Source: Desulfatiglandales bacterium (GTDB lineage Bacteria; Desulfobacterota; DSM-4660; Desulfatiglandales; Desulfatiglandaceae). Taken from it: a DNA stretch of 64,000 nt. Positions 1 to 22,141 of the stretch are shown in pieces. The translations under genes were made by a program, and so were the position numbers. Below the pieces are notes generated by a model. The model searched no databases. It was not told where the DNA came from and worked only from the letters and a program-made list of their open reading frames with translations. Within the stretch, counting starts at the first letter, position 1. Each line of letters begins with the position of its first letter. The stretch spans positions 6,240,001-6,304,000 of the forward strand of contig OY759599.1 of assembly GCA_963662465.1 (NCBI GenBank), written 5' to 3'.

Positions 1-194
1 CGGTTTTGATCCGTTCCAAAAATGCTTTTGCGCTTTCAATGGACATGTGCGGTTCTCCTTTCCCGGTTTGGCGGTAATGGTTTGTTTGAACTAATCACTG
101 ATGGCAATTACAGCAAGGACCTGATCTGGTCAAATAAAAAAATGGCCATCTGTTTAGCGGACGCAACTGTTTTTTGGTTCCTCATCCCCCCGGA

Positions 195-1621: not shown

Positions 1622-3346
1622 ATGGCAATGAATAGGATAATAGCTCAATTTAATTTAAACAAGTTCAGCATACATAATGCGCGACCCACTAACCGACAGA
1701 GAACAACGCTTATGACCCTCTTTCAAGGGGCTGGGAAAAGCCTCTTTTTTCTGCTGTTTTCAATCCTTGCATCGGCGTATCTCCTCTGCACATCAACCCT
1801 TGTTTATTCCGAACTCCAGGAAGCCGCCAAATCCGTGGATCAGGAGGTCCGGACGGGATTGGGCCTGATGCAAGCGGTCCAGGTAACACTCTATCAACAG
1901 CCTGAAGTCCTTATTCAGCAGCAAGAGGTGGAGGGTTCTCGCGGCAACCTCCGAATGGAAGCGGGTGCGTTTGATCCGAGCCTGACATCTTCCTTCCTCT
2001 ATCAGACGAACGAGTATGCGGCCACCTACTGGCAGCAGGCGCTGTACGGCATCGGCAACCGGAGCTATACCACCACGGGATCTTCCATCGGTTTAGAGAC
2101 CAGGTCCCGCTACGGGTTCAGTTTCGGCCCCAGCGTAGGCGTTACCCGCAATCACGGAATCACCGATTACTTGATGCCCACCAGTTACAACCAGGCCATT
2201 GTTGCCTTTACCGTTAATGTTCCCCTGCTCAAGGGGATGGGAAAGGAGGCGGCCGATGCCGGTGAAATGGCCGCCATGGAAGAACTGGAAGCCGGCATGC
2301 TGGACCTTGAGCAGACCATTAGCCGGAGTGTCATGAATACCACCCAGGCCTACTGGGGTTATCTCTCGGCACTGAGGCAGTTTGAGGTCTTTAAGGAAAT
2401 GGAAACGGATGCTGGGCAGACCCTGGAAGCCATAAGAGAATTGGTTAAGGGGGATGAACGGCCCGCCTCCGACCTGGATCCCTTTGAAGCCAACCTGGCC
2501 CAGAAAACATCCCAGCGCATCAATGCGGAGCAGACGCTTTTCGAGGCCAAGCAGAACCTGGGACTGGCCATGGGCCTGGCCTACACCGCCATTGACGATC
2601 TGCTCCTTCCCAAGGATGCCTTTCCCGATACCGTTTCAGGCGGCGCCAATTCCAACATTATGAATCCCGATGCGCTCTTTCAGGAAGCCCTTCGGAAGCG
2701 CCCGGATTTCCTTGCGCTCAAAAAACGGGAAAACGCCGCAAAAATTATGCTGACCGCCGCAAAAAACAATGTCCTCCCGCAGTTGGACATCAATGCGGGC
2801 GTGGGATATGCGGGGCTGGAAAACGGCGGCGAGGTGAACGACTATCTGAAATCCCTGGGCCAAAATGTCACAGGGGCCAACTACCAGGCGGGGATCCAGT
2901 TCAGCTATCCTTTCGGAAACAACGCGGCGGAGGGATTGGTGGTCCAGCGCAGATCCAATGTGCAAAAGGTGGTGATCCGGACCCGAGATTTGGCGCGAAA
3001 GATCAATTCCGGCATATTGGTGGCGGTACAGGCCCTGTGGCGGACTCTCCGGGAACTCCGGGAGACCCGCAATTCCATCGCCCATTACACAAAGGCGGTC
3101 TCCAGTGAACAGATCAAATTCAGCATGGGAATGGCCTCCGTGATGGATGTCATCAACATGCAGGACAGGCTTCGGGATGTCCGGCTGAGCGAGGTGACCC
3201 AGATGAACCGGTTCGCGGACGCCGTGGTGCGGTTGGGCTTCGAAACGGGAACCCTGGTCATGCCTGAAGGCGACACTTACAGGATCGAAATGAAAAACCT
3301 GACCTCACCCGGGTCCGCGGGGAGAACGGCCGATGACCGAAAATAA
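1622..3346 (+). CDS. TolC-family outer membrane efflux protein of the NHLP export module (start may be 1712)
   Basis: Hydrophobic N-terminal signal, OEP repeats (AYWGYL, RPD, LPQLDINAG); first gene of the secretion operon. Confidence 0.8.
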   Translation: MAMNRIIAQFNLNKFSIHNARPTNRQRTTLMTLFQGAGKSLFFLLFSILASAYLLCTSTLVYSELQEAAKSVDQEVRTGLGLMQAVQVTLYQQPEVLIQQQEVEGSRGNLRMEAGAFDPSLTSSFLYQTNEYAATYWQQALYGIGNRSYTTTGSSIGLETRSRYGFSFGPSVGVTRNHGITDYLMPTSYNQAIVAFTVNVPLLKGMGKEAADAGEMAAMEELEAGMLDLEQTISRSVMNTTQAYWGYLSALRQFEVFKEMETDAGQTLEAIRELVKGDERPASDLDPFEANLAQKTSQRINAEQTLFEAKQNLGLAMGLAYTAIDDLLLPKDAFPDTVSGGANSNIMNPDALFQEALRKRPDFLALKKRENAAKIMLTAAKNNVLPQLDINAGVGYAGLENGGEVNDYLKSLGQNVTGANYQAGIQFSYPFGNNAAEGLVVQRRSNVQKVVIRTRDLARKINSGILVAVQALWRTLRELRETRNSIAHYTKAVSSEQIKFSMGMASVMDVINMQDRLRDVRLSEVTQMNRFADAVVRLGFETGTLVMPEGDTYRIEMKNLTSPGSAGRTADDRK

Positions 3347-4637
3347 GGCCGCAAAGCGTCTGTTTCGGAAGGTGGCGCTGGAACATCTCTCCCTGCCCGA
3401 ACAGCTGGACCAGTTGATGCGGATCACAAGCCCCACCGGTTGGGTGGCCCTGGTGGCCATAGGCCTTCTCCTGGCTTGTGGAATCCTGTGGGGTATTTGG
3501 GGGTCTATTCCCACAAAGGTGGAGGGTTCCGGAATCCTCATGAGCCGCGGCGGAATCTTCTCCATCTCAGCTAGGGCTTCAGGGAGCGTACAGGCCATCC
3601 GCTTGAATGAAGGCGATGAAGTGGAAGCGGGCCAGGTGGTGGTGGTTATCGGGCAACCGGATATTCGAGACAAGATTCTGGCCGGCAACAACAAAGTCCG
3701 CGACCTGAAAACCCAGTACCAACAGCACCGTGCCTTCAGCGAAAAGGAAATGGCCCTTGAGGAACATTCCATTGCCGAACAGCGTACCAATTTGCTTCAA
3801 ACCAATGAAAGCCTGAATGCTCAGCTGAAACTGCTCCGAAAGCGCCTTAAAGACCAGAAACGCCTGGTGGAACTGGGCCTGATTACGCGAATGAAGGTGT
3901 TGGAGACCCGAATTGAAATAGACAACCGAGCCGAAAAGATCAGACAGAACAACAACCAGATTAAACAGCTTTCCATCCAGAAGCTTCAGGCTCAAAACCG
4001 GATCCGGGAAGAACTCTTGGGCCTGGAAAATCAGATTCAAATGGCCCAGGACGAACTTGAAGGCTTTCAAAACAGCCTCCGGATGGATTCCAAGGTCATC
4101 AGCGTATTCACGGGCAGGGTTATCAGCGTGGATGTGGCGCTGGGGGATGTGGTACAGACCGGATCGCGGCTGATGACCATCGAAAAAACAGGGCAACATT
4201 CCCGGTTTCTGCAGGCGATTTTGTATGTTCCGGCAAACCAGGGTAAACGGATCGTAACGGGCATGAGGGTTCATGTGTCCCCCTCAACCGTGAAAAAGGA
4301 CCAGTACGGTTCCATCATGGGACTGGTGACCTACGTCTCCGCGTTTCCCACCAACCGGGAAGCCATGAAACGGGCACTTCTGAACGAAAAAATGGTGGAG
4401 GAACTCTCGAAAAACGGACCGCCCAGTGAGGTCAAGGTGGCACTGGTGCCCGATTCACTTACTTATAGCTGGTATAAATGGACATCGTCCGATGGTCCGC
4501 CCGTTTCCATCCTTGCGGGAACCATGTGTACGGCGACCGCCATTGTGAAGCGGCAGCCGCCCATTCAGCTGGTCATTCCCCTCATGAAAAAATATTTGAT
4601 GGGTGTCGATGAGGACCCCACGCCGTGGGGAGAGTAG
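3333..4637 (+). CDS. NHLP bacteriocin system secretion protein (HlyD/MFP family)
   Basis: LFRKVALEHLSLPEQLDQLMRITSP N-terminus, TM helix, coiled coil, SPSTVKKDQYGSIMG and YKWTSSDGP motifs. Confidence 0.9.
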   Translation: MTENKAAKRLFRKVALEHLSLPEQLDQLMRITSPTGWVALVAIGLLLACGILWGIWGSIPTKVEGSGILMSRGGIFSISARASGSVQAIRLNEGDEVEAGQVVVVIGQPDIRDKILAGNNKVRDLKTQYQQHRAFSEKEMALEEHSIAEQRTNLLQTNESLNAQLKLLRKRLKDQKRLVELGLITRMKVLETRIEIDNRAEKIRQNNNQIKQLSIQKLQAQNRIREELLGLENQIQMAQDELEGFQNSLRMDSKVISVFTGRVISVDVALGDVVQTGSRLMTIEKTGQHSRFLQAILYVPANQGKRIVTGMRVHVSPSTVKKDQYGSIMGLVTYVSAFPTNREAMKRALLNEKMVEELSKNGPPSEVKVALVPDSLTYSWYKWTSSDGPPVSILAGTMCTATAIVKRQPPIQLVIPLMKKYLMGVDEDPTPWGE

Positions 4638-4640
4638 CTG

Positions 4641-6821
4641 ATGGCGCACTCCTCCGGGGCCTGGAAAAGGCGACGCGTCAAAACCCCCACCGTGCTTCAG
4701 ATGGAGGCGGCGGAGTGCGGTGCGGCCAGTCTTGCCATGGTCCTGGCATATCACGGACTTTACGTGCCCCTTGAGGTGTTGCGGGTCCAGTGCGGCGTAT
4801 CCCGGGACGGGAGCAAAGCCAGCAATATCGTCAAGGCGGCCCAAAAGTACGGTATGACGGCCAAAGGGTTTCGCAAGGAACCCGAAACCCTGAAAGGCTT
4901 GCCGCTGCCCATGATCCTTTTCTGGAATTTTAATCACTTTATCGTTCTTGAAGGCATCAAGGGGAATCGTGCGTACCTCAACGATCCCGCGGCCGGCCCG
5001 AAAAAAATATCCATGGACCAACTGAATAAATCCTTTACGGGGGTTGTGCTCACCTTCGAGCCCGGGGAAGACTTTAAAAAAGGAGGCGAGAAGCGCAATG
5101 TCTTTAGATCGCTGAGACGCCGGTTTTCCGGCTGCGGGAAAGCCCTGGCTTATGTGGTGCTGGCGGGCCTTTTTCTGATGATACCGGGTTTGGTTTTTCC
5201 CACCTATACCAAAATATTTTTAGACAATGTGCTCATGGACGGCTATACGTCCTGGCTCAGACCCCTCCTGTTGGCCATGGGCATTACGGCCCTGACCAGT
5301 TTTGCCTTGACCTGGCTTCAGCGTTATTTTCTCCTTCGATTTGAATTGCGGTTGTCCCTGAGTGGATCGACCCGGTTTTTTCACCACATATTGCGCCTTC
5401 CCATCCCCTACTTTGCCCAGCGTTTCGCGGGAGATCTGGCAGGCCGCGTACACTTGAACGACAAGGTGGCCCAGCTCCTTTCGGGTCAGTTGGCCGTCAC
5501 CATGATTCATCTGATCACGGCAATATTTTATCTGGTTGTCATGCTTCAGTACAGCATCCTTCTGAGCATGATCGGCATCGGGTTTGCCATGTTGAACCTG
5601 GTGGCATTGAAAGTGGCTTCCTATCGCAGGAAGAATGTCAACATGGCCCTTCAACAGGATATGGGAAAACTCATGGGACACACCATGACCGGTCTCCAGA
5701 TGATTGAAACCCTGAAAGCGGGGGGGGCGGAGGCGGATTTCTTCACCCTGTGGGCCGGTTATCAGACCAAAGTGGTCAATTCGCAGCAGAAGCTGTCCGT
5801 TTCCACCCAGCTCCTCTCCGCTATTCCCCCGACGCTCCTCTCCCTCAACCACACCATCATGTTGTTTTTCGGGGCCATCCTGATCATGGACGGACAGATG
5901 ACCATCGGCATGCTCTTTGCGTTCCAGATTCTGATGATGGGCTTCATGCAACCCTTCAGCCATTTCGTGGACATGGGAAGCCGGATGCAGGAGATCCATG
6001 CCGATATCAACCGTCTGGAAGATGTGACGGCCAACCCCGTGGATGAGGCATGTTCGGGAACTCGGGTGAATCCGAAAGATTTCCCTGACGTATGCGTAAA
6101 ACTGGACGGTCAACTTGAAATGAAAAACATCACCTTCGGGTACAGTCCGCTGGAACCGCCGCTGATCAGGGATTTTAACCTGACGTTAAATCCCTGTGCC
6201 CGGGTGGCGCTGGTGGGCGCCTCGGGATCGGGTAAATCCACGGTGGCGAAATTGGCAGCCGGTCTCTATGAGCCCTGGGAGGGAGAAATTTTGCTGGACG
6301 GTCGACCCATCGCTTCCATTCCCAGACAGGTCTTTGCACACTCCGTGGCCATGGTTGATCAGGATATCTTTCTCTTTGAAGGGACCATTCGTGAAAACCT
6401 GACCATGTGGGATGCGACCCTTCCGGAAAACGCTTTGATTCGGGCAACCACGGATGCCTGTATTCATGACGACATCCTGGGACGTCCAGATGGATACGGG
6501 GGCCGGGTTGATGAAGGGGGCGCCAATTTCAGTGGTGGGCAGGCCCAACGGCTGGAAATCGCCAGGGGATTATCCGGGAATCCGGCACTGCTGATCCTGG
6601 ACGAGGCCACCAGCGCCCTGGATCCGGAAACGGAAGCAAGGGTGGACAACCATTTAAGACGACGGGGCGTCAGCTGCCTGATCATCGCCCATCGCCTGAG
6701 CACCATCAGGGATTGCGACGAGATTATTGTTCTGGATGGGGGGGTGGTGGTTCAGCGGGGCACACACCGGGAACTGCAGGGTCAAGAAGGGGTTTATGCC
6801 GAACTCATCAAATCACAGTGA
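4641..6821 (+). CDS. NHLP export ABC transporter with C39 peptidase/permease/ATPase domains
   Basis: LQMEAAECGAASL C39 catalytic Cys, WNFNHF His, GASGSGKS, FSGGQ, LILDEATS. Confidence 0.93.
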   Translation: MAHSSGAWKRRRVKTPTVLQMEAAECGAASLAMVLAYHGLYVPLEVLRVQCGVSRDGSKASNIVKAAQKYGMTAKGFRKEPETLKGLPLPMILFWNFNHFIVLEGIKGNRAYLNDPAAGPKKISMDQLNKSFTGVVLTFEPGEDFKKGGEKRNVFRSLRRRFSGCGKALAYVVLAGLFLMIPGLVFPTYTKIFLDNVLMDGYTSWLRPLLLAMGITALTSFALTWLQRYFLLRFELRLSLSGSTRFFHHILRLPIPYFAQRFAGDLAGRVHLNDKVAQLLSGQLAVTMIHLITAIFYLVVMLQYSILLSMIGIGFAMLNLVALKVASYRRKNVNMALQQDMGKLMGHTMTGLQMIETLKAGGAEADFFTLWAGYQTKVVNSQQKLSVSTQLLSAIPPTLLSLNHTIMLFFGAILIMDGQMTIGMLFAFQILMMGFMQPFSHFVDMGSRMQEIHADINRLEDVTANPVDEACSGTRVNPKDFPDVCVKLDGQLEMKNITFGYSPLEPPLIRDFNLTLNPCARVALVGASGSGKSTVAKLAAGLYEPWEGEILLDGRPIASIPRQVFAHSVAMVDQDIFLFEGTIRENLTMWDATLPENALIRATTDACIHDDILGRPDGYGGRVDEGGANFSGGQAQRLEIARGLSGNPALLILDEATSALDPETEARVDNHLRRRGVSCLIIAHRLSTIRDCDEIIVLDGGVVVQRGTHRELQGQEGVYAELIKSQ

Positions 6822-9522
6822 TCGGGCTACACCGACCTCCGATCTCCGACCTCCGACCTTTGTCTTTTCCGGCGGCGATCCCTTGGAAATCGCCGGAAAC
6901 AGGCCTCTGTTCGCCGTGGACGCGGATTCCTTTTGGATTGTCAAAAGGGGGGAAGTCGATCTTTTTGCCGTTAGACTGGAAAACGGTAAAGCCGTAGGTC
7001 CAAGGCGCCATCTGTTCTGGGCAGGTGTCGGGGATTTTATTTTCGGCGCCGCCCTTAAGGAAAAAACCCATGTTCTGAGCATCATGGCCGTGGGAAAGCC
7101 GGGTACGAAATTAACCCGATATGACCGAACGGTCCTCAAGGGCGCGTTGGAATCCCCGGAACCGTCAAAGGCCGTGCTTTCGGGCGTGGAGACATGGGTT
7201 GCCAGGATGTCCGGTGTCACCGGGTTTTCAGCCGGGAATGGTTTGGGCGGCAAAGCGTTTGACACGGCGCTTGATGGTTTTCATGAAACCGTCCTTCAAG
7301 GTATTTCCGAGGGAGAAGAAAAGGACCGGATTAAAGATCGATTGCATTTTGACCAGCGGATCATGCAAGATTTTCGAGGGCTGGAAAAGACCCTTTTCCA
7401 TTTGGGCGCCACCTTGTTTCGGAAGGGGAAAACCGCTCTTCAACCGAGCGGCAAAGGCTCTTCCCTTTTGGTGTCGGCAGTGGCGGTTGCACAAGCCTGC
7501 GGTATTGAGACGGGGAAACTCTCAGATGCCGTGGCCCGGAGGCAAGACGACCTGACCCTGGATTATATTGCCAGGGCCGGCAATTTCTTCACCCGCCCGG
7601 TGGTTCTCACACCCGGGTGGTCCGGTGAAGACAACGGCCCCCTGCTGGGGCGGCTGGAGGATGAAAAGGGCGAACGGTTCGTGGCCTTGCTGCCCACATC
7701 CCCCACCCGCTATGTGCTGTTCGACCCGGAAAATGGGACCCGCATTCCCATGACCCGGGGGTTGGAGGAACGGATCCACGGGATTGCCCATACCTTCTAT
7801 CGACCGCTCCCGCCCGAATCCCTCACCATTCGCCATATCCTGCGATTCGTCCTGGCGGGGGTTTGGCGCGACCTGACCATGATGGCCCTGGTGGGCGCGG
7901 CCGGGGCGCTATTGGCCCTGTTGATTCCCATTATGACGGGGGTCATCATCGACTCGGTGATTCCTGAAGCCAACCGGAGCCAACTGCTCCAGATTGGTCT
8001 GATTCTGCTGGTGAGTGTTTTTGCCGCGTTTATGTTCCAGATTACCCGGGCCATTGCCATGGTTCGCGTGGAGGGGCGAATGGATGCGGGGTTTCAGGCG
8101 GCGGTCCTGGACCGCCTGCTGAACCTGCCGATCCCTTTTTTCCGCAAGTTTACGGCGGGTGATCTGGCCAACCGGACCATGGGCATCAACTACATTCGCC
8201 AGATTCTTTCAGGCGCCACCCTCACCACCGCCATGACGAGCATTTTCTCTTCCTTCAACCTGATCGTCATGTTTATCTATGACTGGCATCTCGCCCTCAT
8301 AGGCCTCTGCATGATCCTGATTACCCTCATCATTTCAGGGGGACTCAGTATTTCCATGATCCGGTATCAAAGACAGGTTTTTGATATCGAGGGGAAAAAT
8401 GCCGGCATTGTCTTCCAACTCCTTACCGGGATTGCCAAACTGCGCATGACCGGGACGGAAGACCGGGCCTTCGGGGTGTGGGCCGAAAATTTTGCAAAGA
8501 AAAAGATCATCGATTTCAAGTCCGGAAAAATCAATGCGGCCCTGGATACGGCCACTTCTTTTATCCCAATGGTATCCACCATGCTGATTTTCTGGTTTTT
8601 CTTAAAATCCCGCATGACGGGCATGAGCACCGGCCATTTTTTGGCGTTCAATGCAGCCTTTACCAGTTTTCAGATGGCATTGGTCCAGACCACACTGGTT
8701 TTTTCCAGCCTTCTCCACATCATTCCCCTGTGGGAGCGGGCAAAACCGATCCTCGCAACCGTACCCGAGAGGTTCGATGCCGGGACTGCAGCCCCCCGTC
8801 TTAGCGGCAGCCTTACGGTGGACCATGTTGCCTTTCGTTACAGTGAGGATGGACCAAAGGTTCTGAAAGAGGTGAGCCTCAAGATCGCTCCCGGTGAATT
8901 CGTCGCGGTGGTGGGAGGCTCAGGCTCCGGGAAATCGACGCTTCTCCGTATTCTACTGGGGTTTGAAAAACCGGAGTCGGGAGTCGTTTACTATGACCGC
9001 CATGATCTGGCGCACCTGGATGTGAAAAGCGTTCGCAGACAAATGGGAGTGGTCCTTCAGAATGGGCAGGTGATGCCCGGAAGCATCCTCAAGAATATTA
9101 CGGGCGCCGCCGATCTCACCCTGGAGGATGCCTGGGTTGCGGCCCGTATGGTGGGGCTGGACAAGGATATCGAGGCCATGCCCATGGGCATGTATACGGT
9201 CGTTCCGGCAGGGGGAGGGACCCTTTCCGGAGGACAGCGTCAACGACTCATTATTGCCAGAGCCGTTGTGAGAAAACCTCGCATTCTGCTTTTTGATGAG
9301 GCCACCAGCGCCTTGGACAATCTCACCCAGGCCATTGTCATGAAAAGCCTCGATGGACTGGAAGTGACGCGGCTGGTGATTGCCCACCGGCTCAGCACCA
9401 TCACCAACGCCGATCGGATTTATGTCATGGAACGGGGGAAAATTGTGGAATCGGGAACCTACGACGAACTCATGGAAGCGAAAGGCTATTTCCACCAGCT
9501 TGCCATACGGCAGATTGCGTAA
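6796..9522 (+). CDS. NHLP export ABC transporter permease/ATPase (peptidase-less partner)
   Basis: GPRRHLF, DNGPLLG, FYRPLP motifs; GGSGSGKS, LSGGQ; ATG 6796 follows AGAAGGGG (ORF track starts at 6727). Confidence 0.9.
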   Translation: MPNSSNHSDRATPTSDLRPPTFVFSGGDPLEIAGNRPLFAVDADSFWIVKRGEVDLFAVRLENGKAVGPRRHLFWAGVGDFIFGAALKEKTHVLSIMAVGKPGTKLTRYDRTVLKGALESPEPSKAVLSGVETWVARMSGVTGFSAGNGLGGKAFDTALDGFHETVLQGISEGEEKDRIKDRLHFDQRIMQDFRGLEKTLFHLGATLFRKGKTALQPSGKGSSLLVSAVAVAQACGIETGKLSDAVARRQDDLTLDYIARAGNFFTRPVVLTPGWSGEDNGPLLGRLEDEKGERFVALLPTSPTRYVLFDPENGTRIPMTRGLEERIHGIAHTFYRPLPPESLTIRHILRFVLAGVWRDLTMMALVGAAGALLALLIPIMTGVIIDSVIPEANRSQLLQIGLILLVSVFAAFMFQITRAIAMVRVEGRMDAGFQAAVLDRLLNLPIPFFRKFTAGDLANRTMGINYIRQILSGATLTTAMTSIFSSFNLIVMFIYDWHLALIGLCMILITLIISGGLSISMIRYQRQVFDIEGKNAGIVFQLLTGIAKLRMTGTEDRAFGVWAENFAKKKIIDFKSGKINAALDTATSFIPMVSTMLIFWFFLKSRMTGMSTGHFLAFNAAFTSFQMALVQTTLVFSSLLHIIPLWERAKPILATVPERFDAGTAAPRLSGSLTVDHVAFRYSEDGPKVLKEVSLKIAPGEFVAVVGGSGSGKSTLLRILLGFEKPESGVVYYDRHDLAHLDVKSVRRQMGVVLQNGQVMPGSILKNITGAADLTLEDAWVAARMVGLDKDIEAMPMGMYTVVPAGGGTLSGGQRQRLIIARAVVRKPRILLFDEATSALDNLTQAIVMKSLDGLEVTRLVIAHRLSTITNADRIYVMERGKIVESGTYDELMEAKGYFHQLAIRQIA

Positions 9523-9537: not shown

Positions 9538-10737
9538 ATGACCTACAGACTGACGACAATCCTGATGGTTCTGCTCATTTTCCTCGCCTCCTGTATTGTG
9601 CCCGAAGACCCGGCCAGGGAACGGGAGGAACGGGCAAAACAGGTCCGAGGGGATATCCTTGTGGGCGCCGTGGCGCCCTGGTCCGCCATCGACGTCCTCC
9701 TGTGGGAAGGCATCGCCATGGCCGTTGATGAAATCAACCATTCGGGGGGTCTTTCGGGCCGGAAAATCCGGGTCCTCAAGCGGGATGATGAAAGCACCGT
9801 CAAAAAGGGGATCCTGATTGCACAGGAATTTGGAGAAAACCCCGATCTGGCGGCGGTGGTGGGACATTATGAATCGTTCATTACCCTGCCGGCTTCCGTT
9901 GTTTATCAGTATTACGGTATCCTGATGCTCTCCAGCGTGGATACCAACCCCGGTCTCACGCGGCAGGGGTTCCCCCTGGTCTTCCGGACCGTCCCCAACG
10001 ACATCGAGTATGGAAAAAGACTGGCCGATTTCTGCCGCCAAAAAGGGTATAATCAGTTGCTGGTGATGCTTCAGCGGAGCGAGTACGGCAGGGATTTTTC
10101 AGACGCTTTTGCCACGGTGGCCCAGAGTGCGGCGCTCAACATTTTAGACGGCGCCTCATACGATCGGATGACCAGCGAGAAGGAACTTCAAGGAATCCTA
10201 AAGCTCTGGAAGGAGCGCTATACATTTGATGCCATCCTTCTCTCCGGCGAACTGCCCCGGTCCGCCGCCATCATTCGTGAAGCACGGCTCATGGGGATCC
10301 AACAACCGATCATCGGCGGCATCGCCATGGACCAGAAACGGATTTTGACCCTGGTGGGGAAAGAGACGAAAGACGTGTTTCTCCCCACCAATTTTTATCC
10401 CCATTCAAAATCGACTGAAGTTGAGCGGTTTGTGAAGAACTTTCAAAAACGATACGGCCGTATGCCCGATGTCATGGCGGCCCAGGGGTATGACACGATT
10501 CACGCCCTGGCGTATGCCATCAAAAAGGCCGGATCCACCGTACCGTCTGAAATGGCCAAGGCCCTCCGGTCGGCGGATAATCTGCGAGGCGCCACTGGAA
10601 ACCTGCGGTTTTCAAAGGATGGGGACCGCGTCATGGACAAGATTTTCATCAAGATGATGGAAAACGGGCAATTCGTCTACCTCAACCCTCAATCAGAGGA
10701 AGAAGGGCGGATGTCGAATGCAGTGAAAGGGAAATGA
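9538..10737 (+). CDS. Branched-chain amino acid (LivK/LivJ-like) substrate-binding lipoprotein
   Basis: Lipobox LASC, AVDEINHSGGLSGRKI, FRTVPND, AAQGYD, GATG motifs; SD GAGGA. Confidence 0.8.
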   Translation: MTYRLTTILMVLLIFLASCIVPEDPAREREERAKQVRGDILVGAVAPWSAIDVLLWEGIAMAVDEINHSGGLSGRKIRVLKRDDESTVKKGILIAQEFGENPDLAAVVGHYESFITLPASVVYQYYGILMLSSVDTNPGLTRQGFPLVFRTVPNDIEYGKRLADFCRQKGYNQLLVMLQRSEYGRDFSDAFATVAQSAALNILDGASYDRMTSEKELQGILKLWKERYTFDAILLSGELPRSAAIIREARLMGIQQPIIGGIAMDQKRILTLVGKETKDVFLPTNFYPHSKSTEVERFVKNFQKRYGRMPDVMAAQGYDTIHALAYAIKKAGSTVPSEMAKALRSADNLRGATGNLRFSKDGDRVMDKIFIKMMENGQFVYLNPQSEEEGRMSNAVKGK

Positions 10738-10758: not shown

Positions 10759-10849
10759 AAAAATGAATTCCGGAGAATTGATGCTCAAATTTGGATCAGA
10801 CTCTATCAAAAAATCAACCACCACCCGGAAGACATCGACCCGTGCCGGC

Positions 10850-11179
10850 TCAGAAATTGTATCCTCCGGGTCCATATCCTTCAAGCGCATCTTTCTCGAC
10901 GGGCACGGTACAATCCCCCGGCACATAAACTCCCCCTGCCACAGCGTCCAATTCTATTCCGGAAAGTTCCCCATCCAAGGGAGGCAGGGAGGGCAATACC
11001 ACATGAATCACCTTCTCGGTGTTTTCCAGGAATCTTATCTCTACGCCTTCGGGAACGTCAATGCCCGCTTCCTTGAGCACGCCGGCGCTGTCCGTCAGAA
11101 GCTTTTCTTTAAATGCTTTGTCGGACCAGGCTTTTTCCACCAGCCTGCCGAACGCTTTTGACGCTTCTTTTTTTTTCAT
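10850..11179 (-). CDS. NHLP-leader RiPP precursor 1 (core VYVPGDCTVPVEKDALEGYGPGGYNF)
   Basis: KAWSDKAFKEKLL..PEGVEIRFLENT..HVVLP..ELSGIELDAVAGG leader with double-Gly site; SD AAGGAG. Confidence 0.92.
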   Translation of the reverse strand: MKKKEASKAFGRLVEKAWSDKAFKEKLLTDSAGVLKEAGIDVPEGVEIRFLENTEKVIHVVLPSLPPLDGELSGIELDAVAGGVYVPGDCTVPVEKDALEGYGPGGYNF

Positions 11180-11341
11180 AGCGTTTCTCCTTTTATGATT
11201 GGTGTGAAGGGGTTACTTCATGGGCTTGAGCAATGTTATAAAAGTACGGTTTCCCGTTGCGGTCCCTTTGGCTTTCCGGGCCACCACCTGGCGCCATTAC
11301 CGAAAGTTGTCCCCTAAAGGGCTTGCCCAATTCTTTTTTAA

Positions 11342-11608
11342 TTATGCCTCCATCCGTCCGCCGTGACAGCCTCTGCATCCCAGGTCTTCCACCAGATCAT
11401 CGCATCCCGCTCCCACAACATTCGCCATATCATCTTCGCTTAATTCACCGCGCGCGTTCCTCATTTCTTCAGCCGTAAATTGAAATTCTTCAGCTTTGGC
11501 GATGTTCAGACGGTCCTCCCCCGACAAGTTTTTATCCGACAATTTCGTCCTCAAATCCTCGTCGTTTTTGACTTTTTCCAAGAATGCTTTTGCACTTTCA
11601 ATGGTCAT
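11342..11608 (-). CDS. Nif11-leader RiPP precursor (core approx. CDDLVEDLGCRGCHGGRMEA)
   Basis: MTIESAKAFLEKVKNDEDLR..FQFTAEE..ELSEDDMANVVGAG leader; SD AGGAG. Confidence 0.88.
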   Translation of the reverse strand: MTIESAKAFLEKVKNDEDLRTKLSDKNLSGEDRLNIAKAEEFQFTAEEMRNARGELSEDDMANVVGAGCDDLVEDLGCRGCHGGRMEA

Positions 11609-11745
11609 GGGCTTCTCTCCTTTCCCTTAATAGGGCAATTTTCGGGTTAAGATATTCAGTGTTTTATAAATGCAACAATACTTACCTTTTTTACTATTTA
11701 GCGTTATTTGTGAAAGATGCAAGTTTCCGGCAAAAGAGTTTTCTT

Positions 11746-13143
11746 TCATCCAAAATCAAGGGGACAGGGCTTGGGCGGGACAATGTCTTCTCCCTGCAAA
11801 AAGTCCCGGTCCGCTTCATCCAGTCTACTACTTAAGTAGGCGCTGAGCTCAAACTCCCGGCAGCGCAAGCGGCACATTTCCTCCGGGGGCTTAAATATGG
11901 AGCCTGTGGCGGCCGCATTGTCATACCTGCAACCGCCCGCACAATAGTATCTGGCATGGCATTCGCCGCATTCCCGCACAAATTTCATGGGGCTTTTCAA
12001 GTATTCATCCCGGTCTATGCTGTTGTCAAAGATATTTCCCAGCTTGTATGCTTCCATTCCCACAAACCGGTGGCACAGATAAACATCTCCCGCACTGGAG
12101 ATCGCCGTAAGGCCCAGCCCGGCGCCGCAGGGAAAGAATCTTTTGCGCTTATGGGAAAAGCTAAGCAACCCATGGTAGAGCTCGGAACTGTTTTTGAGTT
12201 GCCTTAAGGCCTGGGTATCCCTGCCCTCGATCCCCTTAAGCCACGCGTCAGCCTCCTGTTCCAGGAGGTCAAGCGTATTTTGCAGATTCCTGTCCGATGC
12301 GGGCTTTTTGCGGTCGCAGGTCAGCATGCAATCCGAAGCCGGGGTTATTGAGATCTTGGTAAACCCGATGTCCTTTAGGGCCGCTTTTACTTTTTGCGGA
12401 TCGGCGCCCTCCATGAGGACCGCATGGCCCGGGGTTTCCGGGCGGACCGCCAGCAGATTTTTGATTTTGGGAACTATGGCATTATATGAGCCCTTGCCGC
12501 CGATAAAGGGTCGCTGAATATCCTGTATCTCCCTGGGACCATCGAAACTGATCATGACCTCGATATCCTCATCCTGAATGAAATTAATCTGTTTTTCATC
12601 CAGCAGGGTCCCATTGGTAGTGGCGTGAAAATCCACCTTTTTATGGACTTCATGGGTCCTGTTCCGGGCATAGTCCACGATCTTTTGCATCAGGGGAAAA
12701 TTCAAAAACGGTTCCCCGCCAAAGAATCCTATATGGATCTTCTTGGCCTTCCCGGATTGTTCAATGAGCCAGTCCACCGCCTGATAAGCGGTCTCTTCTT
12801 CCATATTGCCCCTGTGGCCATACTCCCCACCTTCACCGTAACAGTAGACGCAGCGCAGATTGCAGGACTGGGTGAGGAAAAAGGCTGCATTGACAATGGG
12901 TACGGGATCGATCGGTTCTTTTCGGGCTGCTTTTTTATCTTTTTGGGAAATCAAGCCCAGTGTTTGGAGCGGTTTAATGTTGAGTGATCTCCAAAAAGAA
13001 TCACCGTTATCCGTAACTTGCCGTAGAAGTTCGGCGGTTTTTTCATCTATGGGACGGGTTTCCATCTCTTCAATATTGATCACATACCGGTGATCTTGAT
13101 GGTCGCCCACATAAAAGGGCTTTAGTCGCATCTCTTTGTCCAT
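11746..13143 (-). CDS. Radical SAM/SPASM peptide maturase 1 (PapB/CteB-like, putative thioether-forming)
   Basis: CNLRCVYC, FFGGEP, TTNGTLL, SFDG, SPASM CGAG..CH..CGEC..CAGGC; likely start MDKEMRL at 13143 (ORF-track extension overlaps precursor 2). Confidence 0.9.
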   Translation of the reverse strand: MDKEMRLKPFYVGDHQDHRYVINIEEMETRPIDEKTAELLRQVTDNGDSFWRSLNIKPLQTLGLISQKDKKAARKEPIDPVPIVNAAFFLTQSCNLRCVYCYGEGGEYGHRGNMEEETAYQAVDWLIEQSGKAKKIHIGFFGGEPFLNFPLMQKIVDYARNRTHEVHKKVDFHATTNGTLLDEKQINFIQDEDIEVMISFDGPREIQDIQRPFIGGKGSYNAIVPKIKNLLAVRPETPGHAVLMEGADPQKVKAALKDIGFTKISITPASDCMLTCDRKKPASDRNLQNTLDLLEQEADAWLKGIEGRDTQALRQLKNSSELYHGLLSFSHKRKRFFPCGAGLGLTAISSAGDVYLCHRFVGMEAYKLGNIFDNSIDRDEYLKSPMKFVRECGECHARYYCAGGCRYDNAAATGSIFKPPEEMCRLRCREFELSAYLSSRLDEADRDFLQGEDIVPPKPCPLDFG

Positions 13144-13204
13144 ATTATCATTCCCCGAATAGATGAGTGGATGCCGGAGGACGGAAGACATCGACCGTAC
13201 CGGC

Positions 13205-13534
13205 TCAGAAATTATATCCTCCGGGTCCATATCCTTCAAGCGCATCTCTCTCGACGGGCACGGCACAATCCCCCGGCACATCAACTCCCCCTGCCACAGC
13301 ATCCAATTCTATTCCGGAAAGTTCCCTATCCAAGGGAGGCAGGGAGGGCAATACCACATGAATTACCTTCTCTGTGTTTTCCAGGAATCTTATTTCCACG
13401 CCTTCGGGAACGTCAATGCCCGCTTCCTTGAGCACGCCGGCGCTGTCCGTCAGAAGCTTTTCTTTAAATGCTTTGTCGGACCAGGCTTTTTCCACCAGTC
13501 TGCCGAACGCTTTTGACGCTTCTTTTTTTTTCAT
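13205..13534 (-). CDS. NHLP-leader RiPP precursor 2 (core VDVPGDCAVPVERDALEGYGPGGYNF)
   Basis: Differs from precursor 1 at 4 residues; same NHLP leader and AVAGG site. Confidence 0.92.
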   Translation of the reverse strand: MKKKEASKAFGRLVEKAWSDKAFKEKLLTDSAGVLKEAGIDVPEGVEIRFLENTEKVIHVVLPSLPPLDRELSGIELDAVAGGVDVPGDCAVPVERDALEGYGPGGYNF

Positions 13535-13572
13535 AGCGTTTCTCCTTTTATGATTGGTGTGAAGGGTTTACT

Positions 13573-15036
13573 TCATGGGCTTGTGCCCGGTCCGTAAAAC
13601 TTTCTTTGATTTTCCTGTAAAAAAGCAATGTCCGGCGCCTCGAGCCGGTGAAAGATGCAGACGGCCTTTTCAATGGCATATTTAACCCGGTCGCAATAAT
13701 CGTCCACGGGATGGAAAAGATCGCCGTTGGCCGCGCGGTTCACGTAGATACAGCCGCCGCCGCAGAAATGGGCGGCCCAGCATCGGGCGCATTTTTCCAA
13801 TCGCGTGACCATGGCCCTGAGATACGGTTTCCTGTCCGCCACTGTTTCAAACACGCTCCCCATTTTCATTCCGGGGTCTCCGGTGAACAGCGGACAGGGG
13901 AAAAGGTCTCCAGTAACCGACACCCCCAGATACCCTCTGCCGGCGCCGCATCCATACAGGCGTTTTTGTTTTGACATCAAAGCGTAAACATATGTTAGCA
14001 GCATTTTGGAACCGTGCTTGGGGACGCTTCGGTCCCTGATGGCCTCTAAGGTGATATCGGCTTCATGATCCAGAAAGTCAGAAATGTGCTGCCTCTCTTT
14101 CGCTCCTTGGTTTTGCGGCGCCCAGTTGCCGTAAAGGGATGGCATAGCTGGGGTCAGGGTATAGGATGTAAAACCCGTCGACACAATGGCCTCTTTTATT
14201 TGGGGTAGGTCTTTCGCCCTTTTGATGGTCGCCCTGCAGCGGGCCCCGGGGATTTTTGCCAGCAGTTTTTCAACATTTTTCGCAACCGTTTTATAGGACC
14301 CGCGGCCGTTCTTAAAGGGCCGGTTTTCATTCTGGATATGCTCCGGACCGTCAAAACTGACCAGGGGGGTAATGCCATGGGCCTTTAAAAATGCGATCTT
14401 TTCTTCGTCCAGCAATGTGGCATTGGTAGTCATTCCGTATTTCACCTTTTTTCCCAAGGCCTTTCCCTTTTTGTCGGCATGGGCCACCACATGCCGGATC
14501 AACGGAAAATTCATCAGGGGTTCGCCGCCGCCAAAGAGGATACCCACCGACTTTTTTTGGCCGGATTGTGCCATGAGCCAGTCGACGGCCCGTGTCGCGG
14601 TCGCCTCGTCCATTTTCCCTTCACTGCCGCATTCCCCGGTGTTTCCGTAGCAGTAAACACAGCTGAGGTTGCACTGCCGGGTGACATTCATGGTCAGGGT
14701 GACCACGGGTTCCCCGGTGAGTATTTTAATGAGATCATTCATCCCGGGGCTCTTTTCCCCGGGCGGATGGGATAAGGCATCTTCCTTCGGGGCGCCGTCA
14801 ACCAGGCCCATGTTCTCTAGTTTTTCCATGACGGAGGAAGGGACCGGCATGCCTTTATTGAAGCGGATTCGATCCAATGTATCGGCCATCCGGTCGTCAA
14901 TGATCGCACTGGTCATGGCAATTGCGTTCAAAAGATATGAAGTGCCTTCATGTCGGAACAGGTGAAAGGGCGTAAGGGAAACGTTACAAAAGTACGTTTT
15001 TCCGTTGCAATGTATTTCAATATGTTGTGGCAGCAT
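13573..15036 (-). CDS. Radical SAM/SPASM peptide maturase 2
   Basis: CNLSCVYC, GGGEP, TTNATLL, SFDG, CGAG..CP..CARC..CGGGC; likely start MLPQH at 15036 after GGAG (track gives 15066). Confidence 0.9.
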   Translation of the reverse strand: MLPQHIEIHCNGKTYFCNVSLTPFHLFRHEGTSYLLNAIAMTSAIIDDRMADTLDRIRFNKGMPVPSSVMEKLENMGLVDGAPKEDALSHPPGEKSPGMNDLIKILTGEPVVTLTMNVTRQCNLSCVYCYGNTGECGSEGKMDEATATRAVDWLMAQSGQKKSVGILFGGGEPLMNFPLIRHVVAHADKKGKALGKKVKYGMTTNATLLDEEKIAFLKAHGITPLVSFDGPEHIQNENRPFKNGRGSYKTVAKNVEKLLAKIPGARCRATIKRAKDLPQIKEAIVSTGFTSYTLTPAMPSLYGNWAPQNQGAKERQHISDFLDHEADITLEAIRDRSVPKHGSKMLLTYVYALMSKQKRLYGCGAGRGYLGVSVTGDLFPCPLFTGDPGMKMGSVFETVADRKPYLRAMVTRLEKCARCWAAHFCGGGCIYVNRAANGDLFHPVDDYCDRVKYAIEKAVCIFHRLEAPDIAFLQENQRKFYGPGTSP

Positions 15037-15478: not shown

Positions 15479-15751
15479 CTGAAAACTCCTAAATAGAGAT
15501 TAAGATTTTATTAAAAAAACGAACAATTTTTAATAGAGCAAAATAAAACACACCGTGTCAAGGAAAAAAGGGTCTTCACGAGGGTTCAACGGTCCATGGG
15601 TATAGGTTGAAAAGCTCTTATATCCTTTTTTACAATAAAAGGGAAAATCCGTGCATAGCCAGCAATTCTAATTTTGACCTGAAACAAATTTTCGAGATTG
15701 GTCCTAACTTCGCCCACTCGCACCTCGCGACTGAATTGGCAAGCCTCTGAT

Positions 15752-15811
15752 GCAGCGCAGATTGCAGGACTGGGTGAGAAAAAAAGCGGCATTGACAATG
15801 GGGACGGGATC
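15752..15811 (-). pseudogene. 60-bp relic of a maturase-1 paralog (DPVPIVNAAFFLTQSCNLRC)
   Basis: Near-identical to 12850..12909. Confidence 0.75.
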
Positions 15812-16049
15812 CTTTCGAGGGACTCTTTTCTAATGGAAAATTGGCATAAAAATAAAATCAGCCGGCAATTAAGATTTGAGTATTCAAAAATAAATGGTAT
15901 GTTTTTATTTGAGCAGTGGGTAAAACAGGTTCCAGTTCAGGTGGAACATTGATCGCCATTTCAAAACGCTTCATGCGGTGGAAGTGAGACCTGTGGTTCT
16001 TCTTAAGAATCGCCGGTGAAAAACGGGATTGTGAAACGAGGATTAACAC

Positions 16050-16592
16050 ATGAGAAAAGTGCTCTACATTCTGGGTGGATTGGACGACAACGACGTGGAG
16101 TGGTTGATCGCAAGAGGAGAGCGACGGCGGTTGCCTTCAGGCGAGGTGCTCATTTCCGAGGGGGATATGATTGAGGCCCTTTATATTTTGCTGGAGGGGG
16201 AGTTGGCGGCTTCGGTAAAAACCCATGAGGGTGCCCGTGAGTTGGGCCGCATGGCGGTGGGCGACATGGTGGGGGAGATTTCCTTGGTGGACGACCGGCC
16301 CGCATCCGCAACCGTCACCGTGGTGCGGGACGCGTATGTATTGGCTATCCCCCGCTCGGCGCTGCTGCAAAAACTGGAAATCGAAGTGGGGTTCGCGGCA
16401 AGGTTCTATCACGCTGTGGCCCAGTTGCTCTCCTACCGCCTGCGGGATAACACGGCTCTGATCGCAGGCGAAGGCGGGCCGCCGGTCCCCGAGCTGGAGA
16501 AGGACGAGGACCTTCTCGGCCTGGATGTGTTGGACAATGTGCATATGGCGGGTCAGCGTTTTTCCCGCATCATGCGGCGGTTGGCCGGTTAG
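16050..16592 (+). CDS. Cyclic nucleotide-binding domain protein of the type associated with NHLP transport clusters
   Basis: LGGLDDNDVEWLI, GDMVGEISLVDDRPASATV, GFAARFY; SD GAGGA. Confidence 0.82.
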   Translation: MRKVLYILGGLDDNDVEWLIARGERRRLPSGEVLISEGDMIEALYILLEGELAASVKTHEGARELGRMAVGDMVGEISLVDDRPASATVTVVRDAYVLAIPRSALLQKLEIEVGFAARFYHAVAQLLSYRLRDNTALIAGEGGPPVPELEKDEDLLGLDVLDNVHMAGQRFSRIMRRLAG

Positions 16593-16630
16593 GTCAGAGA
16601 AGATTGCTATCAAATGCGGATGAAAAATCT

Positions 16631-16785
16631 GGTTCATCGCGGATTAACGTGAAATCGCGCTTTGAGATTGTTTCGGTTCGGGCTGTAGGTGCGACTTCAG
16701 TCGCACAGGGTCGGCTTAATGTGCGACTGAAGTCGCACCTACAATCGGCTCAGAAGCCAAATCTCACGCGAATCCACGATGAGCC
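16631..16785. mobile_element. Short TIR-bounded MITE-like element (type T1) carrying a REP doublet
   Basis: Ends GGTTCATCGCGGATTAACGTGA / TCACGCGAATCCACGATGAGCC (imperfect inverted repeat). Confidence 0.6.
16684..16743. repeat. GTAG-family REP doublet
   Basis: TGTAGGTGCGACTTCAGTCGCACA and its exact reverse complement 12 bp apart. Confidence 0.85.
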
Positions 16786-20238: not shown

Positions 20239-22141
20239 GTGCGCCTGTGAAGGCGCTTTATCAGTGCGGTGAAAGTCCGTACCGGAGTATGCCATAGCTC
20301 CGTAGCCGAAGGTAACTGCGTCGCCGCGAGGCGGGGTGGAGAGCAACCGGAGGCGAAAAGTCAGTCCGTAGGATGACGAACCCGATTCGGTGTCATGTGG
20401 TGGCGAGCCTACCGTTCCATGGTGAAGCCTGAAACTCACAGACCACGCTGTAATGGCGGTTAAAGCGATGGTTTGACGGCATGGTATGTTTGGGGTCGGA
20501 ATGACTGGAAGGTAAAGCGAGATAAGCAGGGAGACCTGTCTCTTGGGGTGACAGGAGGCAGGAGTCAGAGTCCTCATAGTACCGTAGCGACAGAACGGTC
20601 CTGCTAACAAGGCTTACGGCGTGAGACCAGTACCCGCCGCCTGCGTCGGATACCGGGTTGTGAAAAGCGCGGATAGCAAAACCGTGCCGAGGGAAGGAGG
20701 ATAGGAAGATAGATACGGAAAGGTCATATAGATGCAGCTAAATCAAGCAGTCTCGGCAGTGTTGGAAACAACTAAACGCGAGGCAGAAACCCGATGGGAT
20801 TGGGTGGAAGCATCGGTGTGGACGGAACGTATGTTGGCAGCCCTGGGTAACGGGGTGAAAGGTGGTAAATGGTACAGTTTGATGGATAAGGTGTTCGCCT
20901 TGTCGACGCTGGAAGCGGCTTGGGGACGTGTCAAAGCCAATAAAGGAGCGGCAGGGATAGACCGTATCAGCATAAAGCGCTTTAAGGAGCAGGCGGAGAA
21001 ATACCTTGCCGAACTGCATGAAACCTTGAAAGCGGGAACGTACCGACCGGAAGCGGTAAAACGGGTATACATTCCGAAAAGCGACGGCAAACAACGCCCG
21101 CTGGGGATACCCACGGTCAAAGACCGGGTAGTGCAGGCAGCGGTTAAAATGGTTATGGAGCCCATATTCGAGCATGAATTTCTGCCGATGAGTTACGGCT
21201 TCAGGCCGCAAAGAGGTTGCAAGGACGCGTTGCGAGAAGTAGACGCGCTTATTAAGGAAGGCTACACCTTCATACTGGACGCCGACCTGAAAAGTTACTT
21301 TGATACGATTCCGCACGATAAGCTGATGCAACAAGTCGAAATGCGCATCAGCGACGGCAAATTGCTCAATCTGATTCAAATGTTCCTGAAACAGGACGTG
21401 ATGGACGGCTTGGAAAGATGGACACCGACGGGTGGTTCGCCACAAGGGGCGGTAGTCAGCCCCTTGCTTGCGAATATTTACCTGCATCCTCTTGACAGCC
21501 TGATCGCGGAATCAGGTATGCGGATGGTGCGTTACGCAGACGACTTTGTTATCCTCAGCCGCAGTCAAACGGAAGCGGAGAATGCTTTGCAAAAGGTACG
21601 GGAGTGGGTACAGGCTAATGACCTGAGCTTACACCCGGACAAGACGCATCTTGGCGACTGTCGACAAAAGGGTCAGGGATTTGAATTCCTGGGATACCGG
21701 TTTGAGGCAGGAAAGCGCTGGATACGCAGTAAAAGCCGTAAAGCCCTTCGTGATAAAATCCGGGAAGAGACCCGGCGCAAACGTAGCGGAAGTATGGAAA
21801 GCATCATTGATGATCTGAACCCCATGCTTGAAGGCTGGTTTGGTTACTTCAAACACGCCTACCGCACTGAGTTTGCGGCGGTGGATAAGTTTGTCCGCCG
21901 ACGCTTACGCGCCGTATTATTGCGTCGTAACAAACGCAAGGGCTGGGGCAAAAGCCTTGAAGCCCACCGCCGCTGGCCGAATGCCTACTTCGCGAAAATC
22001 GGGCTTTTCACTATGCATGAGGCCCGGTTAGCAGCGTGCCGATCCCGATGAGGAAACTATCGACCGGAGAGCCGTGTGCGGGAGAACCGCATGCACGGTT
22101 CGGAGGGAGGGGAGAGCCAAGAGGCTCTTTCCTACCCCTAT
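20239..22141 (+). mobile_element. Group II intron, copy 1 (1903 bp)
   Basis: 5' GTGCG, domain V GAGCCGTGTGCGGGAGAACCGCATGCACGGTTC, domain VI ending CCTACCCCTAT; boundaries supported by copy 2 and its empty site. Confidence 0.95.
20732..22051 (+). CDS. ltrA: Group II intron reverse transcriptase/maturase (no endonuclease domain)
   Basis: NKGAAGID, RPLGIPTVKDR, SYGFRP, PQG, RYADD, FLG, domain X GWFGYF. Confidence 0.95.
   Translation: MQLNQAVSAVLETTKREAETRWDWVEASVWTERMLAALGNGVKGGKWYSLMDKVFALSTLEAAWGRVKANKGAAGIDRISIKRFKEQAEKYLAELHETLKAGTYRPEAVKRVYIPKSDGKQRPLGIPTVKDRVVQAAVKMVMEPIFEHEFLPMSYGFRPQRGCKDALREVDALIKEGYTFILDADLKSYFDTIPHDKLMQQVEMRISDGKLLNLIQMFLKQDVMDGLERWTPTGGSPQGAVVSPLLANIYLHPLDSLIAESGMRMVRYADDFVILSRSQTEAENALQKVREWVQANDLSLHPDKTHLGDCRQKGQGFEFLGYRFEAGKRWIRSKSRKALRDKIREETRRKRSGSMESIIDDLNPMLEGWFGYFKHAYRTEFAAVDKFVRRRLRAVLLRRNKRKGWGKSLEAHRRWPNAYFAKIGLFTMHEARLAACRSR

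Follow-up and report, generated by a model that had tools for sequence, protein, structure and literature searches.

A Desulfatiglandales RiPP locus with two radical SAM/SPASM enzymes and two leader classes: a candidate two-cassette thioether system

A 64,000-nucleotide stretch of contig OY759599.1 from a Desulfatiglandales bacterium (the window, whose numbering is used throughout) carries a cluster for peptides that are synthesized on ribosomes and then modified post-translationally (RiPPs). In it, two radical S-adenosylmethionine (SAM) enzymes with SPASM domains, rSAM1 and rSAM2, lie among precursor genes of two leader classes, Nif11 and NHLP. The locus raises the question of whether both enzymes read one common substrate motif or whether each modifies its own class of precursor in its own way. 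The best explanation, which we favor with little better than even confidence, is a two-cassette cluster in which rSAM1 would bridge a Nif11 cysteine to a carbon beside a carboxylate, rSAM2 would bridge the NHLP cysteine to a different acceptor, and one exporter would serve both. The genes, their families, the cysteine ligand patterns, the pocket residues, the purifying selection and the variation of the cores are established. The cluster is real and intact, and of a kind that is known bioinformatically yet chemically undescribed in the literature searched.

The five core genes lie on the minus strand in the order rSAM2, NHLP2, rSAM1, Nif11, NHLP1, and converge on a plus-strand exporter operon:

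13573..15036, minus strand: rSAM2, with a RiPP recognition element (RRE), a radical SAM domain and a seven-cysteine SPASM domain (Radical_SAM and SPASM profiles; TIGR04064 at 412.9 bits, below the cut-off of 518.7)
13205..13534, minus strand: NHLP2 precursor (TIGR03793), directly behind rSAM2, with a single cysteine, Cys90 (13265-13267), and a core that follows VAGG
11746..13143, minus strand: rSAM1, an NlpM enzyme of 465 amino acids (TIGR04064 at 586.8 bits, cut-off 518.7; Radical_SAM and SPASM profiles)
11342..11608, minus strand: Nif11 precursor (TIGR03798 at 65.2 bits, cut-off 32.3), directly behind rSAM1, with Cys69, Cys78 and Cys81 and a Gly-Ala cleavage site
10850..11179, minus strand: NHLP1 precursor (TIGR03793), a duplicate of NHLP2, with a single cysteine, Cys90 (10910-10912)

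Open reading frames (ORFs) and family profiles confirmed the genes listed in the first-pass annotation of this DNA; the cores hold CTVPVE and CAVPVE in the NHLPs, which score 77.5 and 78.2 bits against a TIGR03793 cut-off of 50.9, and CDDLVE in the Nif11 peptide. Profiles were run on 27 window proteins, part of a set of 51 ORFs of at least 150 amino acids plus the three precursors, and, as the annotation had stated, no YcaO or LanM was among them. In the closest relative, L007, rSAM2 is 95% identical and the order is rSAM2-NHLP-rSAM1-Nif11, with a single NHLP gene.

rSAM1 belongs to TIGR04064, “nif11-like peptide radical SAM maturase” (NlpM): it scores above the curated cut-off and has a Nif11 precursor next to it. 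The family was introduced in 2011 by Haft as the sole candidate maturase beside NHLP/Nif11 peptides (PMC3023750). We found no paper describing NlpM chemistry, most subscription papers lying outside the literature searched. The Hudson 2019 data set may already include NlpM clusters. Both window enzymes have seven SPASM cysteines in the CteB/PapB spacing, three for auxiliary cluster I and four for auxiliary cluster II; in rSAM1 these CteB-type ligands are C339/C357/C405 and C392/C395/C401/C424. In CteB and PapB, such a set of seven SPASM cysteines means that one site of auxiliary cluster I stays open (PMC10177961, also the source of the ligand numbering). CteB is the closest solved structure for both enzymes. 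The CteB match has an E value of 6e-53 versus 1e-14 for anSME, and the predicted model of rSAM1 (predicted local distance difference test [pLDDT] score, 88.7) has CteB (5wgg) as its best fold match.

Six pocket positions have been defined with CteB as reference (PMC10288494); at these, rSAM1 reads Y-F-T-S-H-R, as do 96 of 119 NlpM sequences (rSAM1 plus 118 of 120 listed matches, two partial ones being left out); Arg359 is present in all 119. The pocket of a QhpD homolog (L099) is identical to that of rSAM1, while in CteB and a SCIFF enzyme (L100) Gln replaces Arg, giving His-Gln. QhpD links Cys to Asp or Glu (PMC13692751), and so does PapB; enzymes of the CteB type link Cys to Thr (PMC13692751, PMC10177961). 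Given its CteB-type seven-cysteine SPASM domain and the six pocket residues of QhpD, rSAM1 likely links Cys to a carbon beside a carboxylate, with variable spacing. An arginine (R372 in PapB, R373 in QhpD) binds the carboxylate in those enzymes, a point for which our literature search gave no confirming paper. rSAM1 scores below the cut-offs of the named thioether families (bits/cut-off: PapB, 274/340; QhpD, 224/453; SCIFF maturase, 238/425). It ends in a PCPLDF tail (11746-11770), whose Cys460 and Asp463 are invariant in 119/119 NlpM sequences and which is absent from QhpD, ScfB and rSAM2. The thioether-type, ranthipeptide-like character proposed in the first-pass annotation gains support from these comparisons; the shared C-X4-E substrate motif proposed with it did not survive, as detailed below.

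We then turned to the cores that NlpM enzymes are expected to modify. The Nif11 profile listed 120 of 121 proteins, which with the window peptide made 121; of these, 91 had a parsable cleavage site and a core of 3 to 40 residues (89 distinct, 76 with Cys). Thirteen cores could be linked to an NlpM enzyme. Four links (window, L007, L018 and L019, the last two through cluster representatives) were made by DNA, and the other nine by precursor and enzyme source contigs of identical size (10 exact matches including L007, with 0.6 expected). Across these nine pairs, the more alike the enzymes are, the more alike are the leaders (rho 0.84, p 0.0006), which fits true co-location; shared host ancestry would give the same. 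Each of the 13 linked cores has a Cys with Asp, Glu or a C-terminal Gly no more than 9 residues downstream of it, the offset ranging between 2 and 9. The four without an acid after Cys all end in Gly, as none of the other nine does. Among the 76 Cys-containing cores, terminal Gly as C-X3-Gly occurs 8 times versus 1.5 expected (0/3000 shuffles), and after pruning to 50 cores 3 times versus 0.5 (p 0.004). PapB cross-links Cys-Xn-Asp for n = 0-6, C-X6-D poorly (PMC9413430), and links the engineered C-S-A-N-G via the Gly C-alpha while refusing C-terminal L-Ala, Lys, Phe, Asn, Ile as well as Gln (PMC12373016). With this tolerance in view, the natural cores match a carboxylate-reading enzyme with loose spacing.

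Nif11 cores ending in C-X3-Gly or C-X4-Gly with a free C terminus include P0144/L019, P0152, P0153, P0154, P0156, P0162, P0164, P0166 and P0177. Several have only 6 to 8 residues. These cores are probably macrocycles that the NlpM family closes in nature by a C-terminal thioether.

rSAM2 is a different enzyme. It is 34% identical to rSAM1 and, besides missing the NlpM cut-off, falls below those of the thioether families (PapB, 256/340; QhpD, 228/453; SCIFF maturase, 195/425). All ten cluster cysteines are kept; the pocket reads Y-G-T-S-P-L, which matches no thioether enzyme compared, and there is no C-terminal PCPLDF. The tree places rSAM2 beside NlpM on a long branch (support, 99/96), and its placement as a sister or recent copy of rSAM1 was rejected (approximately unbiased test, p-AU 0.0008). 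In the ESM Atlas it lies near generic radical SAM and SCIFF-maturase clusters. Its single-sequence fold was poor (pLDDT, 40.6) and was not used; likewise, a predicted rSAM2-NHLP complex scored 0.11 against a mark of 0.32 with controls not folded, gave no answer and was not used as evidence. Since rSAM1 falls in a named family and rSAM2 has a different pocket, it is improbable that both recognize the same motif, and the remodeled active site of rSAM2 is predicted to make a different link from that of rSAM1.

For the acceptor of rSAM2 we looked to the NHLP cores. The NHLP search returned eight proteins: the window's own, four distant subfamily members (61-70% identical), a deletion chimera and two generic NHLPs. 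Leaving out the chimera and the generic NHLPs, we aligned seven sequences, three of them near-identical. Within the core, Pro87, Cys90 and a Gly further on are the sole positions that never vary; position Cys+7 is acidic in 7/7 and Cys-1 in 6/7. NxxcB forms a thioether on Asn, a non-acid acceptor, within a Cys-containing four-residue motif (PMC9389541). With such acceptors known, P-x-x-C, being invariant, is a reasonable starting guess at the rSAM2 link site, though no more than a guess, by analogy and from seven sequences.

Put together, the proposed pathway would run as follows. Each enzyme would bind its leader through its N-terminal RRE. The substrate Cys would then bind the three-Cys auxiliary cluster I, and the 5'-deoxyadenosyl radical would take a hydrogen from the acceptor carbon, giving a C-S bond and a loss of 2 Da per link, an outcome that we consider quite probable for rSAM1 and fairly probable for rSAM2. 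For rSAM1 the acceptor would fairly probably be the C-beta of Asp or the C-gamma of Glu or, in relatives, the C-alpha of a Gly at the C terminus. In the window Nif11 core, the best candidates are spacings that the ortholog has as well, either C-X5-[D/E] (Cys69-Asp75 and Cys81-Glu87) or C-X1-[D/E]. rSAM2 would, somewhat more probably than otherwise, serve the NHLPs, and two acceptors are to be considered first: the invariant Pro that precedes Cys by three residues and the acid at Cys+7. Cleavage at Gly-Gly or Gly-Ala and export by the NHLM system would follow (PMC2887384). Antagonism and signaling are candidate roles that the peptides may have.

The assignment of enzymes to precursors draws on the layout of the cassettes, which includes a duplication and a remnant:

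10826..11231, strand not assigned: 406-nucleotide duplicated segment, whose other copy is at 13182-13586 (96% identity); it takes in the last codons of rSAM2
11222..11260, minus strand: 39-nucleotide remnant of an rSAM2-like 5' end, joined to the last codons of rSAM2 (local alignment score of 44; best of 500 shuffles, 31)

NHLP1 and NHLP2 differ at 4 amino acids; the NHLP genes reflect one duplication, so the window holds two independent cores rather than three. Judged by its alignment, the remnant is a deleted maturase before NHLP1, that is, a second rSAM2-NHLP cassette minus its enzyme. Both NHLP copies stand behind an rSAM2-type 3' end, NHLP1 additionally behind this remnant, and at L018, L019 and L098 a single NlpM enzyme lies beside a Nif11 gene. 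The cassette layout, the gene order in L007 and the single-enzyme NlpM loci together favor the pairing of rSAM1 with Nif11 and of rSAM2 with NHLP. One maturase per leader class, as the earlier annotation had suggested from gene order, is therefore probable, with room for rSAM1 to act on NHLPs as well.

A number of observations weigh against this explanation as a whole. The Asp/Glu enrichments at +3, +6 and +8 of the Nif11 cores are modest and weaken when the set is pruned (p 0.05-0.31). Of the four linked cores with a Gly end, three belong to one enzyme clade and the fourth (P0190/P0018) to that of rSAM1, which leaves roughly two independent cases; a Gly end is found in neither core of the window. 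In the wider set, whose members have no established link to NlpM, 8 of the 18 Cys cores without an acid lack a Gly end, and the Nif11 peptide beside a Prosthecochloris NlpM has neither Cys nor Gly-Gly. Nine of the 13 links rest on equal source-contig size, not DNA, and the comparison of rSAM2 rests on one relative. The NHLP homolog P0005 and the rSAM1-type P0023 come from source contigs of equal size (41,679), deletion chimeras join the start of rSAM1 to the end of an NHLP, and Cys460, which NlpM enzymes never lack, could occupy the iron site left open, implying other chemistry.

The P0005/P0023 match and the chimeras mean that rSAM1 may act on NHLPs too. In an alternative that we think unlikely, although it fares best of the rivals, rSAM1 would modify both precursor classes (the NHLPs at the Glu at +5 or the acid at +7), and rSAM2 would be an accessory partner in an obligate pair or make a second modification. 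The precedent is thuricin CD, where TrnC and TrnD act on two precursors and do so only when joined in a complex (PMC12093266), and the acid at Cys+7 in all seven NHLPs would suit a carboxylate-reading enzyme. However, NlpM stands alone at L018, L019 and L098, the NHLP gene travels with rSAM2 ends in the duplication, PapB is poor on C-X6-D, and rSAM2 has kept all ten of its cluster cysteines.

Cys460 is the main structural reason for keeping a non-thioether alternative, in which this residue would close auxiliary cluster I, in the way that anSME does with four ligands, or donate a hydrogen, leading to Cys oxidation, epimerization or C-C chemistry. The invariance of Cys460 and Asp463 across NlpM and their absence from QhpD and ScfB would fit such a role, as would the NlpM-adjacent Nif11 without Cys and an rSAM2 pocket unlike that of any thioether enzyme compared. 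Even so, CteB is by far the best sequence and fold match, the rSAM1 pocket is identical to that of QhpD, and 13/13 linked cores carry Cys, and we regard this alternative as distinctly improbable.

We next asked what remained of the motif on which the first-pass annotation had centered. In its version, both enzymes would form Cys-to-Glu C-gamma thioethers at a shared C-X4-E, which each of the three window cores has and which NHLP alleles that are nearly identical retain (L007 and sequencing runs X5 and X6). The annotation had named conservation in homologous cores as a check; we made it in both classes, and the motif was not conserved. In L007 the ortholog of the Nif11 peptide (88% identical) has the sequence C-S-E-D-T-F, where Phe replaces Glu at Cys+5; the two orthologs have in common acids at +2 and +6 counted from the first Cys and the tail from C-R-G-C, including Glu at +6 counted from the last Cys. 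Of the 13 Nif11 cores linked to NlpM, one has C-X4-E, and so does one of the four distant NHLPs (Glu at Cys+5 in 4/7 of the full alignment), and Asp/Glu at Cys+5 shows no enrichment in the 76 Cys-containing Nif11 cores (11 observed versus 14.3 expected). When two cores were shuffled with Cys fixed (n = 20,000), a shared Cys-to-Glu offset of 1-7 arose in 17% of cases and a shared Cys-to-Asp/Glu offset in 56%; the exact offset of 5 with Glu in both arose in 2.6%, an offset picked after looking. At a chance level of 17-56%, and with the NHLPs being duplicates, sharing of C-X4-E is not above chance, and the common motif is, on these counts, a coincidence. PapB accepts four intervening residues, so one core may still carry a C-X4-E link; with rSAM2 lacking the His-Arg pair as well, use of the motif by both enzymes is very improbable.

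The YGPGGYNF tail of the NHLPs, which the first-pass annotation had called conserved and a possible modification site, is common only to the window duplicates: it is altered in the close homolog and absent from 4/4 distant ones. Spliceases excise Tyr at a conserved XYG motif in the core. Splicease action on the GYG of this tail was rejected, as YG is absent from 4/4 distant NHLPs, and no splicease model was found among the 25 best NCBIfam rows for each enzyme (25/67 and 25/63). Separately, the Nif11 core contains C-R-G-C-H (11363-11377), a CxxCH pattern kept in the L007 ortholog. Heme attachment there was set aside because the pattern was seen in two close orthologs only and because type I export bypasses the periplasm.

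Further remnants flank the cluster:

15749..15829, minus strand: further rSAM1-like gene fragment, a pseudogene remnant
1..46, minus strand: first part of a disrupted Nif11 gene (internal TGA) that extends past the window edge, beyond the exporter as seen from the cluster

That the locus is decaying and without a functional product, as several maturase remnants, the broken Nif11 gene, transposase-rich flanks and a patchy presence (3/209 genomes of the order) might suggest, is hardly credible given intact core genes, strong ribosome-binding sites before the precursors, a complete exporter, and ratios of nonsynonymous to synonymous substitution rates against L007 of 0.29 for rSAM2, 0.35 for rSAM1 and 0.16 for Nif11, indicating purifying selection.

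Truncated NlpM-like paralogs at L007:13701-14360 and at 15749-15829 of the window suggest that maturase cassettes have been gained and lost repeatedly, and six database entries (P0007, P0131-P0135) are deletion chimeras of an rSAM1 N terminus and the C-terminal half of an NHLP. Nearby, a 155-nucleotide element (16630-16785) with internal inverted similarity and about 40 near-identical copies in the genome resembles a miniature inverted-repeat transposable element, many Rpn/YhgA-like putative transposase genes occupy 16817-37103, and two ORFs of 439 amino acids (20732-22051 and 31281-32600) look by appearance like group II intron reverse transcriptases, a further copy lying at genome position 1462231.

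The remaining genes of the locus are those of the exporter and a syntenic neighbor:

1622..3346, plus strand: TolC-like outer-membrane efflux protein (PF02321)
3333..4637, plus strand: NHLM HlyD adaptor (TIGR03794 above cut-off)
4641..6821, plus strand: C39 peptidase/ABC exporter (TIGR03796 above cut-off)
6727..9522, plus strand: second NHLM ABC subunit (TIGR03797 above cut-off)
9538..10737, plus strand: periplasmic binding protein (Peripla_BP_6), last gene of the exporter operon, present in L007 too
16050..16592, plus strand: cyclic nucleotide-binding protein resembling the “bacteriocin-type transport-associated protein” (TIGR03896 at 152.8 bits, slightly below the cut-off of 161.05), syntenic in L007

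The C39/ABC/HlyD/TolC exporter that both classes were thought to share is present at 1622-9522, and its sharing is likely. The three NHLM export families occur together with precursors bearing double-Gly-type sites, and no other exporter of the genome scores above the TIGR03796 cut-off. Orphan precursors, Nif11 and NHLP, lie at other genomic positions (contig C1, 7889381-7889722 and 1465939-1466271) and could use this single exporter in trans. The periplasmic binding protein is unusual in an export-only system and could be a receptor or immunity factor. Two YcaO genes lie more than 1 Mb from the cluster, and no precursor-like ORF was noticed beside either among listed ORFs of at least 200 amino acids; a LANC_like search of the genome gave no match, and its control likewise matched nowhere. 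A promoter scan gave 14 sites versus 5.4 expected, none interpretable.

How widely the locus occurs was examined in several sets. A same-genus genome carries the same genes. At the limits set, TIGR04064 was found in 1 of 401 genomes of the phylum, the window's own, and in 3 of 209 of the order; a repeat phylum search with the NHLP profile on largely the same sample gave one other genome, whose cores were unrelated. A contig search with rSAM2 gave three loci, one of them a true relative, and a metagenome scan gave 4 NlpM loci among 80 matches listed, two with a visible precursor. Three viral scans gave no match, assembled sequencing-run contigs contained close alleles only, and among the sequencing runs listed as carrying the sequence none was of RNA. 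The NlpM family has at least 368 members at an E value of 1e-60 or better. The 150 best NHLP representatives contained no further member of the window's NHLP subfamily; of 61 cores parsed from them, 38 had Cys, none C-X4-E and 5 P-x-x-C.

These searches also brought up other systems. L110 and L111, from the same host family, hold a different cluster of Nif11, radical SAM and methyltransferase genes. At L015:9996-18172, another His-Arg-type radical SAM/SPASM enzyme has as neighbors several long proteins that begin with a twin-arginine-like stretch and contain repeats rich in Cys and Asp, which looks like a protein-scale thioether system. Many database proteins (P0261-P0310) have two to four tandem NHLP leader domains.

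The comparison yields a specific prediction for NlpM chemistry: Cys would be linked to a carbon beside a carboxylate, C-terminal glycine included. A bolder combination, which we hold to be doubtful, is that NlpM is a carboxylate-reading thioether family that also closes tiny natural cores head-to-tail via a C-terminal Gly and that rSAM2 is an offshoot with an emptied pocket (Phe, His and Arg to Gly, Pro and Leu) making a new NHLP link, for example, Cys to the Pro of P-x-x-C. If the prediction for NlpM holds, six- to eight-residue cores such as those paired with P0067 and P0109 would be natural C-terminal thioether macrocycles and a precedent for the engineered macrocyclization by PapB. The rSAM1/rSAM2 pair would show three pocket changes redirecting a thioether enzyme and how RRE enzymes distinguish two folded leader classes.

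The known systems closest to the window cluster include the NlpM/TIGR04064 systems (PMC3023750): rSAM1 is above the cut-off, lies beside a Nif11 precursor as the sole-type maturase and has the CX2CX5CX3C SPASM motif. The window cluster differs in adding a second, diverged paralog and the NHLP class, and the family itself is defined by bioinformatics only. As in the other NHLP/N11P systems with NHLM export (Haft, Basu and Mitchell 2010, PMC2887384), TIGR03793, TIGR03798, TIGR03794, TIGR03796 and TIGR03797 are above cut-off, the cleavage sites are of double-Gly type and the cores are hypervariable; in contrast to them, the window cluster is without a cyclodehydratase or LanM, and radical SAM enzymes are its sole maturases.

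With PapB, the freyrasin ranthisynthase, and QhpD, the window enzymes have in common the RRE-radical SAM-SPASM architecture and the three-Cys auxiliary cluster I; the YFTSHR pocket is that of rSAM1 and the QhpD homolog, and links from Cys to a carboxylate-adjacent carbon are predicted for rSAM1. Unlike those systems, the window has long folded leaders, no repeated CX3D and the invariant C-terminal PCPLDF in rSAM1, and NlpM relatives appear to use a natural C-terminal Gly that PapB has been shown to accept on engineered peptides only. CteB of the SCIFF ranthipeptides (PDB 5WGG), the closest solved structure for both enzymes, likewise has seven SPASM cysteines, but its pocket ends in His-Gln, compared with His-Arg in rSAM1 and Pro-Leu in rSAM2, and the window is without a six-Cys SCIFF precursor. 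Thuricin CD (TrnC/TrnD) also combines two radical SAM/SPASM enzymes with two precursor types in one cluster; its precursors, however, are paralogs with short leaders and alpha-thioethers, whereas in the window the two leader classes are unrelated, and NlpM is found on its own at other loci.

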